Numbered from the stretch's first letter, positions 38,606 to 49,030 are shown. The stretch: 64,000 nt of DNA from Planctomycetota bacterium (GCA_029259725.1 JAJDER010000037.1:4972-68971), one strand, 5' to 3'. Notes: generated by a model from the letters alone, not told the origin. Translations and numbers: made by a program.

Positions 38606-39267
38606 GGTCGGGCGCCGACGCTCTCGGCGTCGCCCTCGAGCCAGCGGTCCACGGCCGCCCGGAGGCGTGCGGCGCTCTCGCGCGGATCGGGCGCGTCGGC
38701 GAGGGCGCGCACGACGGCGACGCCCGCGAGCCCGCGGGGCAGCCTCGGCACGCTCTCGACGCCGAGGCCACCGAGCGCGACCACCGGCGTGTCCCCGACG
38801 CGAGCGAGGACCTGTTGGATCTGGCTCCGGGTCAGCAGGGGCCGGGGATGGCTGCGCGGCGTGGCGGCGAACGGGCTCAACATCAGGTAGTCGGCACGCT
38901 CGTCCTCGGGTTGAAGCGGCCAGTGGGCCGAGCGCCCCGCGATCCGTCCCGGGGCGATGCGGCGGATCGCGGCGAGATCCGGACCGGCGTACCCGGTCTG
39001 CACGCCGGCGGCCCGAGCCGAGGCGGCCAGCTCGGCGTCACGGCTGACCAGCGCGAGAGCGCCGCCCGCCTGCACCAGCGATACCAGCGCGCGCGTGAGC
39101 GGCTCGCGGACGCCGTCGGGCTGACGACGCTCGCGGATCAGGACCGCGGTGACACCACCTGCCACCACGCGTTCGACGAGTCGCTGGGTCTCGACCGGCG
39201 GCCGGTCATCCGGCGTGACGAAGACGAGCCGCAGCGACGCGCGCAGCGACTCAGCCATCGCGCCCAC
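38602..39267 (-). CDS. thiE: Thiamine-phosphate synthase
   Basis: 221 aa. It has the TMP-TENI fold pattern (LVFVTPD, AVLIRER, GVQTG, VVALGG). The start is GTG 39267 or ATG 39258, and both overlap the upstream gene stop. Confidence 0.8.
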   Translation of the reverse strand: MGAMAESLRASLRLVFVTPDDRPPVETQRLVERVVAGGVTAVLIRERRQPDGVREPLTRALVSLVQAGGALALVSRDAELAASARAAGVQTGYAGPDLAAIRRIAPGRIAGRSAHWPLQPEDERADYLMLSPFAATPRSHPRPLLTRSQIQQVLARVGDTPVVALGGLGVESVPRLPRGLAGVAVVRALADAPDPRESAARLRAAVDRWLEGDAESVGARP

Positions 39268-46200: not shown

Positions 46201-49030
46201 TCAGCAGCGGCCTCAACGCCTGGCCCGTGGAGCTCTCGGGGATGGCCGCGATCTCCTCGGGCGTCCCCGCCCCCACCAGCGCGCCCCCGCCGTCCCCACC
46301 GTCCGGCCCGAGGTCGATGACATGGTCGGCGCACTTGACCACATCGAGGTTGTGCTCGACGACGAGCACCGTGTTGCCCGCCTCGACCAGCTCCTGCAGC
46401 GCCTGGACGAGCACGCGCACGTCCTCGAAGTGGAGCCCCGTGGTGGGCTCGTCGAGGATGTAGAAGGTGCGCCCGGTGGACGGCCGGCACAGCTCGCTGG
46501 CGAGCTTGACGCGTTGCGCCTCGCCGCCCGACAGCGTGGTCGAGGGTTGGCCCAGCGTGATGTAGTTGAGGCCGACGCCGGCCAGCGTGTCGAGCACCCG
46601 GCGGATCTTCTTGTGGTGCTCGAAGAACTCCAACGCCTCGTCCACCGACATGCCCAGGATCTCGTCCACGGCCTTGCCGCGGTACTGGATCTCGAGCGTC
46701 TCGCTGTTGTAACGGCGGCCCTCGCAGACCTCGCAGGACACCTGCACGTCGGGCAGGAACTGCATCTCGATCACGTTGACGCCGGCGCCTTCGCACTCCT
46801 CGCAGCGCCCGCCCTTCACGTTGAACGAGAAGCGGCCCTTGCCGTAGCCGCGCACCTTGGACTCGGGCGTGCCCGCATACAGGTCGCGGATGTGGTTCAT
46901 CAGGCCGGTGTACGTGGCCGGGTTGCTGCGCGGCGTGCGCCCGATGGGCTGCTGGTCGATCTCGATGACCTTGTCGATGTGCTCCAGGCCGTCGATGCGG
47001 TCGTGCTCTCCGGGCGGGTTCTCGGCCGCGTGCAGGACCATCGCCAGGGCGCGCCGCAGGACCATGTCCACCAGGGTCGACTTGCCCGAGCCGGACACAC
47101 CCGTGACCGCGATGAGGCTGGCCAGCGGGAAGCGCACGGTCAGGTCGCGCAGGTTGTGCTGGCGCGCGCCGACGACCGTCAGCGCCTCGCCCGAGCCCGC
47201 TCGGCGCGCGCTCGGCACCTCGATCCGACGACGCCCCGTCAGGTAGTCGGTCGTCAACGTGTGCGGGCCGTTCAGCACCTCGGCCGTCGGGCCCGAGGCC
47301 AGGACCTCGCCCCCGTGGCTGCCCGCGCCGGGGCCGATGTCGATCAGGTGGTCGGTGGCCAGGATGGTCTCCTCGTCGTGCTCCACCACGAGCACCGTGT
47401 TGCCGCGGTCGCGCAGTGCTCCCAGCGTGCTGATCAGGCGCTTGTTGTCGCGCGGATGCAGGCCAATGGACGGCTCGTCGAGGACGTACAACACGCCCTG
47501 CAGTCCCGACCCGACCTGGGTCGCGAGCCGCACGCGCTGGGCCTCGCCGCCGGACAGGGTGCGCGCGCCGCGGTCGAGGCGCAGGTAGCCCACGCCGACG
47601 TCGCCGAGGAACGCGAGCCGACTGCGGATCTCCCCCACCAGCTGAGCGCCGATGCGCGTCTCGCGGTCATCCAGCTCCAGCGTGTCGAACAGCGCGCCGA
47701 GTTCCGCCAGGGTCAGCGCCGAGAGGTCGGCCACGTGGAGCCCCCTGAACAGCACCGCGCGCGCGTGGGCGTTGAGCCGCGTGCCCTGGCACGACGGGCA
47801 GGTCTGGACGCTGCAGAAGCGCTCGACCTGTCGGTGCCCCGGCTTCCCGAGGTGCCGCTCGAGGGCGGGCAGGATGCCCTCGAAGGGTTTGGTGTCCTCG
47901 CCGCGGATGGTCAGATTGCTGTCGCGCGAGGTCCAGTCCCAGGCCAGCGTGACCTCGTCGTCGCCCGAGCCGCGCAGCATCAGGTCGCGCGCGCGCTGGG
48001 GCAGGTCCTTCCAGGGTGCATCGAGATCGATGTCGAAGGCCTTGCCCAGCCTCGTCAGGCTGGCCGGACCGAGCCGCACGTAGGACATGTACCCGGTGCG
48101 GTTGCTGACCTTCAGCGCGCCCTCGCGGATCGAGAGGTCCTCGTTGGCGATCAACAAGCGCGGGTCCGGGCGGCGCCGCGAACCGAGGCCCTCGCAACCG
48201 GCGCAGGCGCCATGCGGCGAGTTGAACGAGAACAGCCGCGGCTCGAGCTCGGGGAAGTCGCCGTGGCCCTCCGGGCAGGAGCTGAGCGTCGAGAAGGGCA
48301 CCGAGGCCCCGCCGTCCACGCGCACGTTGACCAGCCCGTCGGCCAGGTCGGTGGCGGCCTCGACCGCCTCGGCCAGCCGCGCCTGCTTCTCGGGCTCGGC
48401 CTTCAACCGGTCGACGACCAGTTCCAGCGTGTGGCGCCTGTTGCGAACGAGGCTGATCTCCTCGTCCAGTCGGCGCTCGACACCGTCGACCCAGATGCGC
48501 CCGTAACCCTTGAGGCGCCAGCCTTCGAGATCCTTGCGGTACTCGCCCTTCCGATCGCGGACGACCGGCGCCAGGATCGCCACCCGCTTCCCGGCGTAGC
48601 GCTTGAGCAACGCGTCGACGATGCCGTCCACGGTGCGGCCCTGCACGACCGCGCCGCACTCGGGGCAGTGCGGGACACCCAGCCGCGCGAACAGCAGCCG
48701 CAGGTGGTCGTGGATCTCGGTGATCGTGCCCACCGTCGAGCGCGGGTTGCGCCCGGCGGTCTTCTGGTCGATCAGCAGGGTCGGCGAGAGCCCGTCGATG
48801 CGCTCGACGCGCGGCTTCTCCATGCGCCCGAGGAACTGCCGCGCGTAGGCCGACAGGCTCTCGACGTAGCGGCGCTGCCCCTCCTGGTAGATCGTGTCGA
48901 AGGCCAGGCTCGACTTGCCCGAACCCGACACGCCTGTGATGGTCGTGAGCTGCAGGCGCGGGATGGTGACGTCGACCGACCGCAGGTTGTGCTCGGACGC
49001 GCCCTTCACCACGATGTCGGAGAGGGCCAT
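43274..49030 (-). CDS. uvrA: Tandem-fused double UvrA (two complete excinuclease ABC subunit A protomers in one 1918-aa chain)
   Basis: This is the in-frame part of ORF 43274..49243, starting at ATG 49030 (MALSDIVVKGASEHNL). Half 1 (about 49030-46230) has GVSGSGKSSLAFDT, LSGGEAQRVRL, LDEPSIGLH, GVSGSGKSTLV, LSGGEAQRVKL and LDEPTTGLH. After the basic linker KPRERRVAAARKRKPSSARP, half 2 (about 46141-43277) restarts with ADLVVRGASIHNL and GPSGSGKTSLAFDT and repeats all motifs. Both halves carry the inserted domains and the Cys clusters. Confidence 0.9.
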   Translation of the reverse strand: MALSDIVVKGASEHNLRSVDVTIPRLQLTTITGVSGSGKSSLAFDTIYQEGQRRYVESLSAYARQFLGRMEKPRVERIDGLSPTLLIDQKTAGRNPRSTVGTITEIHDHLRLLFARLGVPHCPECGAVVQGRTVDGIVDALLKRYAGKRVAILAPVVRDRKGEYRKDLEGWRLKGYGRIWVDGVERRLDEEISLVRNRRHTLELVVDRLKAEPEKQARLAEAVEAATDLADGLVNVRVDGGASVPFSTLSSCPEGHGDFPELEPRLFSFNSPHGACAGCEGLGSRRRPDPRLLIANEDLSIREGALKVSNRTGYMSYVRLGPASLTRLGKAFDIDLDAPWKDLPQRARDLMLRGSGDDEVTLAWDWTSRDSNLTIRGEDTKPFEGILPALERHLGKPGHRQVERFCSVQTCPSCQGTRLNAHARAVLFRGLHVADLSALTLAELGALFDTLELDDRETRIGAQLVGEIRSRLAFLGDVGVGYLRLDRGARTLSGGEAQRVRLATQVGSGLQGVLYVLDEPSIGLHPRDNKRLISTLGALRDRGNTVLVVEHDEETILATDHLIDIGPGAGSHGGEVLASGPTAEVLNGPHTLTTDYLTGRRRIEVPSARRAGSGEALTVVGARQHNLRDLTVRFPLASLIAVTGVSGSGKSTLVDMVLRRALAMVLHAAENPPGEHDRIDGLEHIDKVIEIDQQPIGRTPRSNPATYTGLMNHIRDLYAGTPESKVRGYGKGRFSFNVKGGRCEECEGAGVNVIEMQFLPDVQVSCEVCEGRRYNSETLEIQYRGKAVDEILGMSVDEALEFFEHHKKIRRVLDTLAGVGLNYITLGQPSTTLSGGEAQRVKLASELCRPSTGRTFYILDEPTTGLHFEDVRVLVQALQELVEAGNTVLVVEHNLDVVKCADHVIDLGPDGGDGGGALVGAGTPEEIAAIPESSTGQALRPLLKPRERRVAAARKRKPSSARPADLVVRGASIHNLDHIDVTVPHGQLTVITGPSGSGKTSLAFDTIFAEGQRRYVESLSTYARRFLSRMDRPPVDRIDGLAPAIAIDQKTASRNPRSTVATSTEIHDYFRLLWSRAGTPHCWKCGKELKAWSPTLAAQDVLARAAGQRLVITASLFSKDHDHPTLLTKPGTLVDLCEELQRDGFVRVLLDGDEHRLDELPKVGRVRSIELVVDRLKGDARRRTRLAESLGLAQQRGLGLAHVRLEDGAVLDYEARAGCARCDTWLPGELSPRMFSFNSHVGACESCEGLGRLRVADVGELLDDPGRPLLEGAMTSRVGRYIAREGGWHAQLLTELARLQDVDIRRPWSRQPQRFKDAVLHGLEDQRIEVSFAKQSNGRSRSYDYNVEWDGLLAAVEGWWRGTEKDGWWRRALESLMSEGDCPACRGGRLRPWSLATTFGGEGIAKISRLTVTQAREWFDVVELDGSRAMVAEDVLREVRNRLAFLENVGLGYLSLDRGSATLSGGEAQRIRLASQLGNRLVGVLYVLDEPSIGLHPRDQGKLLDTLRELRDLGNTIVVVEHDRETIEAADHVLDMGPGAGRHGGKIVARGTPEQLARSRQSLTGKFLSGRRAVPVPAKRREATRVVSLEDAQLHNLAKLTVDFPVGVFTVVTGVSGSGKSTLVTDLLVPAIRARLEPDKVAPRGQSGVRGAAAFDRLLLVDQAPIGRSPHSNPATYTGVFDDLRALFAASPEARMRGFGPGRFSTNVSGGRCEACSGRGVEVVEMHFLSDVELTCESCHGRRFNRETLAVKCHGFTIADVLEMDIGDALEHFGSISAVRRKLGMLVDVGLGYLKLGQPATTLSGGEAQRVKLASELGRPGTGRSLIVLDEPTTGLHFEDVGRLVAVLQRMVDQGNTVVVIEHNLDVIKSADHVIDLGPEGGSGGGQLVAVGTPEQIAAHPESHTGRYLVGALPGVVA

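Follow-up and report, generated by a model that had tools for sequence, protein, structure and literature searches.

We analysed a stretch of 64,000 nucleotides from a Planctomycetota bacterium (GCA_029259725.1, JAJDER010000037.1:4972-68971), which is called the window in the following. It carries three adjacent genes on the minus strand, encoding a tandem UvrA, the helicase XPB and a putative XPB partner that resembles p52, a subunit of TFIIH. These genes are kept together in a deep clade of planctomycetes and may form a repair operon. The first gene (43274-49030) encodes a protein of 1918 aa in which two UvrA protomers are fused. It is followed by the XPB gene (41601-43277, 558 aa) and by the partner gene (39251-41455), whose longest open reading frame (ORF) comprises 734 aa; depending on the start codon chosen, the protein has 700-734 aa. 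The stop codon of uvrA (TGA, 43276-43274) and the start codon of XPB (ATG, 43277-43275) overlap in an ATGA on the minus strand, which was read directly at 43274-43277. A preliminary description of the window had named the same three genes, and both their common strand and the equivalog scores of UvrA and XPB bear this out.

Both halves of the UvrA protein are full-length. The models NF001503 and TIGR00630 match it in two stretches, with 2500.7 bits (cut-off 1147) and 2397.9 bits (cut-off 729.8), respectively. Among the Pfam domains, UvrA_inter and UvrA_DNA-bind were each found twice and ABC_tran was detected in both halves. The motifs GSGKS/T (Walker A), LSGGE (signature) and LDEP (Walker B) each occur four times in the translation; all four ATPase sites look intact. 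The ATG start at 49030 is supported by an identical database protein of 1918 aa (P0001), and the best matches among solved structures are UvrA proteins (2r6f, 9gxk, 3zqj). Half 1 (46211-49030, minus strand, aa 1-940) is canonical-like. Half 2 (43277-46138, minus strand, aa 965-1918) is a divergent paralogous half with intact ATPase motifs. Between the two halves, as aligned by blastp, lies a basic linker of about 24 aa (PLLKPRERRVAAARKRKPSSARPA; 46139-46210, minus strand, aa 941-964). The halves share 49% identity over about 950 aa.

A homologue search revealed more than 100 tandem UvrAs with lengths of 1.9 to 2.3 thousand aa, and nearly all of the named ones come from Planctomycetota. To judge from these sequences, the tandem protein is the common UvrA of Planctomycetota and thus a lineage trait of the housekeeping UvrA. 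Since it is also present without XPB, as in Lignipirellula cremea (L002) and at the loci L167, L140 and L085, the fusion appears to be a trait of the lineage and not an adaptation to XPB. The earlier idea that the fusion is special to the association with XPB is therefore abandoned. In a rough neighbour-joining tree, the first halves of the proteins of about 1.9 thousand aa, here called group A, are placed near canonical single UvrAs and their second halves form a separate deep clade. The two halves of the class of 2.3 thousand aa are sister to each other in this tree. The tandem UvrAs seem to have two histories, with the larger class derived from a separate duplication or from gene conversion. 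Proteins of the larger class are, in addition, extended by about 350 aa at the C-terminus. One group-A-like tandem UvrA (P0025, 1947 aa) is labelled ‘Asgard group archaeon’ at NCBI, which may reflect bin contamination or horizontal transfer.

Several known types of UvrA were compared with the protein of the window. The same head-to-tail UvrA-UvrA architecture is described by the model NF001885/PRK00635 (1809 positions) for the long UvrA of the Planctomycetes-Verrucomicrobia-Chlamydiae (PVC) group, which we take to be the chlamydial UvrA. The window protein reaches 1319.8 bits with NF001885 and thereby stays below the cut-off of 3054. The UvrA of about 2300 aa from L. cremea differs in that its class keeps two canonical UvrB-binding domains and is not linked to XPB. 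Class II UvrA paralogues of the UvrA2/DrrC type lack the UvrB-binding domain. An assignment to this class was rejected, because both halves of the window protein retain a match to PF17760.

The two halves differ strongly in this domain. The UvrB-binding domain of half 1 (48263-48679, minus strand, aa 118-256) matches PF17760 at residues 133-238 and contains the motif RKGEY, whereas the equivalent in half 2 (45413-45730, minus strand) is diverged. Half 1 scores 104 bits with PF17760 and 66 bits with PF17755; the corresponding values of half 2 are 53 and 45 bits, which are above the cut-offs. A comparable asymmetry in PF17760 between half 1 and half 2 was found for L084 (124 and 47 bits), L086 (112 and 44 bits) and L085 (112 and 40 bits), in contrast to Lignipirellula with its Pirellulales-type UvrA of the 2.3-thousand-aa class (127 and 123.5 bits). 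An in-house hidden Markov model (HMM) applied to 120 tandem UvrAs gave the same asymmetry. Compared with 14 canonical UvrAs, the UvrB-binding domain shows 38% identity in half 1, an ordinary level of UvrA divergence, and 26% in half 2, while the ATPase cores of the halves differ in their identity to canonical UvrAs by at most 5 points. The residues K161 and G162 (both in RKGEY) and H200, in the numbering of the window protein, do not vary among 35 canonical UvrAs or in any of the first halves, and their equivalents are replaced or deleted in the second halves of group A; these positions reflect conservation and are not equated with contacts to UvrB. Within the clade, the domain is less conserved in half 2 (36%) than in half 1 (52%). 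Either the half-2 domain is relaxed, as a single-chain dimer needs only one docking site for UvrB, or it has gained a new partner. The lower conservation within the clade fits relaxation.

The second protein of the trio was assigned to the equivalog family NF045503 (repair_heli_XPB) with 845.8 bits against a cut-off of 610. Its Pfam domains are Helicase_C_3 (PF13625, the N-terminal domain), ResIII (PF04851) and ERCC3_RAD25_C (PF16203), and the motifs GAGKT, DEVH and RED are present in the translation. XPB is a superfamily 2 translocase of the ERCC3/Rad25 type that acts on double-stranded DNA. The identity of the window protein to XPBs of other phyla is 57-63%, and about 53% to actinobacterial XPBs. 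It shares the NCBIfam equivalog, the N-terminal domain, the RED motif and the helicase core with XPB of Mycobacterium tuberculosis (Rv0861c; PMC3353954). In contrast to Rv0861c, the start codon in the window overlaps the stop codon of uvrA, which predicts translational coupling. The function of bacterial XPB was called elusive in a 2026 review (PMC13024598), and according to the study on the M. tuberculosis protein no homologues of other TFIIH subunits were known in bacteria (Balasingham et al., 2012; PMC3353954).

The only Pfam match of the partner protein (E ≤ 0.01) is Helicase_C_3 (PF13625) at aa 566-687 with 55 bits, a domain of the type found at the N-terminus of XPB. This C-terminal domain (39395-39760, minus strand) is equivalent to the clutch domain of p52 and to the N-terminal domain of XPB, and it shows a weak sequence match to the N-terminal domain of human XPB. 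A study of human TFIIH by cryo-electron microscopy describes structural homology between the p52 clutch domain and the N-terminal domain of XPB (PMC6422496). The partner is a ‘helicase-associated domain-containing protein’, and all of its 86 homologues contain PF13625. The true start of the partner is probably ATG 41437 or GTG 41353, since the homologues have about 700 aa and residues 1-31 are disordered in the model described below. Depending on this start, the spacer between XPB and partner measures 145-247 nt (41354-41600); no promoter or RNA motif was found there. The spacer comprises about 200 nt in L003 and 300-400 nt in L004 and L008, as determined by tblastn; the genes of more distant relatives have no spacer and overlap by 4-13 nt.

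An AlphaFold2 model of the partner, built with 37 homologues, reached a mean predicted local distance difference test (pLDDT) score of 82. It consists mostly of helical winged-helix-like domains in series, followed by the Helicase_C_3 domain. In a Foldseek search against the PDB, the best 18 matches were all p52/Tfb2 chains of human or yeast TFIIH (E values of 4.7e-11 to 4e-6, probability 1.00, about 350-570 aligned columns). The top match was 8ebu_D (E 4.7e-11, 516 aligned columns), and the p52-p8 crystal structure 6trs was also among the best 18. The N-terminal half of p52 alone (6tru_A) was found with an E value of 3.8e-3 and a probability of 0.99. XPB N-terminal domains followed at about 1e-5, and other winged-helix proteins were far behind. 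The template modelling (TM) scores against p52/Tfb2 are low (0.15-0.37), which we attribute to the differing domain arrangements of flexible multidomain chains. The Pfam model Tfb2 gave no match to the partner at E ≤ 0.01. We therefore regard the similarity to p52, which the preliminary description had proposed and which the fold search upholds, as a predicted structural resemblance and possibly remote homology, and not as family membership at the sequence level. No nuclease domain and no Bax1 family were found in the partner by Pfam, and no Bax1 was present among the best 50 of 434 structural matches.

The linkage of the three genes was compared between genomes. Group A comprises the clade of tandem UvrAs of about 1.9 thousand aa, whose members are labelled Planctomycetota, Phycisphaerales or Phycisphaeraceae. 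In 21 of the 22 group A loci examined, uvrA, XPB and partner follow each other on one strand and in this order (window, L001, L003-L013, L015, L080, L083, L084, L086, L168, L169 and L170). Whether long UvrA fusions are syntenic with XPB and its partner had been posed as a question; they are at these 21 loci, and not at L002, L167, L140 and L085. The gap between uvrA and XPB ranges from -17 to about +26 nt. The ATGA overlap was observed again in L010-L013, and the called genes overlap by 4 nt in L001, L084 and L169. The linkage holds at identities of 52-55% for UvrA, 51-58% for XPB and 26-28% for the partner, a depth comparable to that between the window XPB and the XPBs of other phyla. Both flanks are replaced and the trio is kept in L083, L086, L168 and L170; the new neighbours are a glutamine synthetase and a peptidase gene in L083, transposases in L086, and kinase/FHA and GreA-like genes in L168. 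An inositol monophosphatase gene and thiE are present beside the trio at some loci and absent at others. Two loci show local changes: about 4 kb are inserted between XPB and partner at L006:2749-6921, and at L086:11828-13626 XPB was called as two ORFs (473 and 124 aa) and the partner is followed closely by transposase genes.

Outside this clade, the linkage was not observed. Among 80 species-representative XPB loci, uvrA was near XPB in none of the approximately 60 non-planctomycete ones. XPB was also absent from the neighbourhood of uvrA in all of 80 metagenome loci, almost all of which carry a canonical single uvrA; these had been collected by a metagenome scan with the C-terminal 400 aa of UvrA, and the matches have 53-60% identity and include few tandem proteins. 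The adjacency of uvrA and XPB is far beyond chance. Conservation outside this genome had been chosen beforehand as a point on which the proposed connection could fail, and the adjacency was found across a deep clade and with varied flanks. By the criteria customary in comparative genomics, these gene neighbourhoods argue well for selection to express the genes together and therefore for a functional relationship between them.

XPB and its partner also occur as a pair in other bacteria. With an HMM of the partner, an ORF of 545-950 aa with the same C-terminal domain was found directly downstream of XPB in several phyla among the 80 representative XPB loci, namely in Clostridia, Anaerolineae, Sumerlaeota, Latescibacterota, Caldithrix, Armatimonadia and Limnochordia. 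The same scan revealed no partner-type ORF beside XPB in Leptospira, Hydrogenedentota, Poribacteria and Chloroflexia. By this distribution, XPB and partner appear as an independent two-gene bacterial module. One metagenome-assembled genome contains an in-frame UvrA-UvrA-XPB ORF of 2512 aa (P0042; L083:9696-17234, GCA_046349655.1), with a spacer of 24 residues where the ATGA overlap would be. P0042 may be genuine or may result from misassembly. A homologue search with its UvrA/XPB junction as the query recovered only truncated UvrA fragments and not P0042 itself. A candidate fusion of XPB with the partner (P0189, 1216 aa, ENA) was rejected as a probable frameshift artefact or pseudogene, because XPB residues 481-558 are replaced by a stretch that looks out of frame.

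The trio is located within a long minus-strand string of densely packed housekeeping genes with a GC content of about 70% and a uniform composition across the region. Upstream of uvrA, a gene of the inositol monophosphatase family (49036-49869) was identified, and further upstream genes encode an epimerase, a protein with metallo-beta-lactamase fold and an S13 D-Ala-D-Ala carboxypeptidase. The partner gene is followed by thiE (38602-39267), and beyond it by a thiL-like gene, tsaE and a gene for an outer-membrane efflux protein. The flanks thus contain genes for thiamine, purine, cell-wall and tRNA-modification functions, and they are kept in relatives. Short overlaps also exist elsewhere in the string and between unrelated genes (partner/thiE 17 nt, thiE/thiL 4 nt). 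Since such overlaps are routine in this co-directional string, the ATGA alone says little; it is present as the preliminary description had reported, and by itself it is no proof of coupling. A scan for sigma-70 promoters gave no match in the window, and terminator-like sites were found inside genes only. LexA-type boxes, which had been suggested as a mark of damage-inducible expression, had no match in the window in the forms CTGT-N8-ACAG and GAAC-N4-GTTC. The Rfam scan of the window revealed one tRNA and no other RNA motif.

Apart from the trio, some further genes of the window are related to nucleic acid metabolism. A ruvB gene was identified at 6276-7301 on the plus strand. The gene of a Y-family (DinB-like) polymerase (30423-31601, minus strand) overlaps with its start the stop of an upstream M28 peptidase gene by 4 nt. 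A protein with similarity to the PolB exonuclease and an RNase H fold is encoded at 56256-57074 (minus strand). Two separate genes contain queuine tRNA-ribosyltransferase (TGT) domains (7402-9639, plus strand; 63369-63998, minus strand), and a tRNA-Val (GAC) is located at 23247-23323 (plus strand). The ORF at 1590-6071 (minus strand, 1493 aa) has a strong coding signal with a GC content at third codon positions (GC3) of 0.90 and gave no Pfam match at E ≤ 1e-6.

Taken together, we slightly favour the view that the three genes are a conserved repair operon, in which XPB and the p52-like protein would form a DNA opener that is accessory to UvrA-initiated excision repair and acts alongside UvrB and UvrC. 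The operon would be chromosomal and belong to a Phycisphaerae-type planctomycete, with the module directly behind uvrA, co-transcribed and often translationally coupled. UvrA would detect the distortion of the DNA and pass the lesion to UvrB and UvrC through its canonical half-1 domain. By analogy to TFIIH, the partner may use its clutch-like C-terminal domain to bind the N-terminal domain of XPB, and may control the ATPase of XPB. The pair of XPB and p52-like protein would be made in step with UvrA and, as an accessory factor of its pathway, would open or remodel the DNA; it could aid unwinding or clear obstacles at the lesion. Incision would still need UvrC or another enzyme, since the trio encodes no nuclease.

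Several observations weigh against this view. Outside the clade, XPB and partner are never linked to uvrA; the coupling is thus not obligatory. The locus L085, from a genome of 8.07 Mb in the same clade, keeps uvrA without the pair: at L085:6001-12425, the uvrA stop overlaps thiE, and the thiL-tsaE-efflux string follows as in the window. Because this string is otherwise identical, the pair may be gained or lost as a cassette. The half-2 domain of the L085 UvrA is diverged in the same way although no XPB is present at the locus. P0042 is a singleton cluster and the sole fusion of UvrA with XPB, and no such fusion (>1100 aa) was found in the best 150 XPB representatives. The linkage may go back to one ancient event; a rough neighbour-joining tree of XPB gave no resolution on the monophyly of the linked XPBs. 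The predicted link of UvrA to XPB and the partner, whether physical or functional, is drawn entirely from gene neighbourhood.

These points lead to the alternative that the genes merely share a location. They would have become neighbours once in an ancestor and would have been kept together by convenience of co-expression or by inertia, while the function of XPB and its partner lies elsewhere, for example in recombination, replication-fork remodelling or transcription-related remodelling. We consider this a real possibility, although on the whole an unlikely one. In its favour, the trio is part of a long run of housekeeping genes that are unrelated, point in one direction and routinely overlap; the pair is free of uvrA in other phyla, and uvrA is unchanged without the pair in L085. 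Neither XPB nor the partner contains a recognisable UvrA-binding module of the UvrB/Mfd type, as judged by Pfam and the fold search, and the function of bacterial XPB is called elusive (PMC13024598). Against it, the trio survives the replacement of both flanks in L083, L086, L168 and L170 and persists at a partner identity of only 26-28%. The neighbouring inositol monophosphatase gene and thiE vary, whereas the spacing of uvrA and XPB stays within -17 to +26 nt and the ATGA recurs.

The diverged half-2 domain allows a more specific version of the repair operon. The UvrA dimer would be functionally asymmetric, with half 1 loading UvrB and the diverged domain of half 2 recruiting the opener formed by XPB and the p52-like protein. 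We put this forward as a tentative idea, which is rather unlikely. The correlation between the divergence of half 2 and the linkage to XPB exists at the level of the clade and represents effectively one evolutionary event, so that it serves as a lead and not as evidence.

The preliminary description went further and proposed that the single-chain UvrA dimer recruits XPB and the partner instead of UvrB, in a UvrB-independent pathway of excision or surveillance. The conserved operon fits this proposal, as does the divergence of the half-2 domain in exactly this clade (40-53 bits against 104-124 bits for half 1). It was also correct that the window contains neither uvrB nor uvrC, which Pfam scans of essentially all plausible genes confirmed; this has no bearing on the rest of the genome. 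A tblastn search with an approximate E. coli UvrB query likewise gave no match in the window or in 83 loci. However, the UvrB-binding domain of half 1 is fully canonical, and UvrB matches were reported in 45 of 45 Planctomycetes genomes and in 75 of 79 PVC genomes in an analysis that spans the classes Planctomycetia and Phycisphaerae (PMC10632474, Supplementary Data 6). The trio encodes no nuclease, the partner resembles only p52 and the XPB N-terminal domain, and a UvrA-binding module of the UvrB/Mfd type was recognised neither in XPB nor in the partner. The lower conservation of the half-2 domain (36% against 52%) fits relaxation equally well, and in L085 this domain is diverged with no XPB at the locus. 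A replacement of UvrB is therefore improbable.

A surveillance system against phages or foreign DNA, with a UvrA-like ATPase and an XPB-like helicase as its parts, is very improbable: PADLOC gave partial matches to mad3/mad8 (UvrA-like ATPase) and to PbeA (C-terminal part of the helicase), but these concern generic ABC and helicase cores, the UvrA and XPB equivalogs score far better, the partner has no PADLOC match, and the locus shows housekeeping flanks, uniform GC content and no nuclease, methylase, toxin or mobile-element context. The suggested recognition of modified or foreign DNA thus finds no sign of a defence role in PADLOC or in the flanks. The match of the model mad3 (MADS system) to the nucleotide-binding domain of UvrA reaches 595 bits, and housekeeping UvrAs could be mis-flagged as defence genes in this way.

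Compared with known repair systems, the trio combines familiar parts. As in the nucleotide excision repair by UvrABC, each half of the window UvrA has two ATP-binding cassette (ABC) modules, zinc modules, an insertion domain and a UvrB-binding domain. It differs in the fusion of the protomers, in the diverged UvrB-binding domain of half 2 and in the operonic arrangement with XPB and a p52-like gene. TFIIH with XPB and p52(-p8) likewise joins XPB to a multi-winged-helix protein whose C-terminal domain is similar to the XPB N-terminus. In contrast to TFIIH, the partner exceeds p52 in length by about 250 aa, the sensor encoded upstream is UvrA and not XPC, and genes for p8, XPD, p44, p34 and p62 are missing from the operon. 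In archaea, XPB is also encoded beside a dedicated partner, Bax1 (PMC7293015, PMC7672443), whereas the partner in the window shows no nuclease domain and no match to Bax1, by Pfam or among the best 50 structural matches. The literature searched describes neither a linkage of UvrA to XPB nor a p52-like partner of XPB in bacteria, in agreement with the earlier statement that no characterised system of this composition is known. Genomic context and one structure prediction suggest that the trio is a variant of known repair machinery.

If the link between uvrA and the pair is mere co-location, the finding shrinks to an annotation note. Several bacterial phyla seem to possess the XPB-p52 pair, which forms the DNA-opening core of TFIIH, in the form of two adjacent genes. 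The linkage of the trio gives a first genomic hint that would place bacterial XPB in UvrA-initiated excision repair, and this can be tested. The asymmetric tandem UvrA offers a natural single-chain system for asking whether one or two UvrB molecules are loaded per lesion. Should the two halves indeed serve UvrB and the XPB/p52-like opener separately, the planctomycetes of this clade would possess a hybrid machine, composed of a bacterial lesion sensor and a TFIIH-type DNA opener that is driven by it. It would follow that bacteria have true p52 homologues and that the XPB-p52 core of TFIIH is a repair module of ancient prokaryotic origin.

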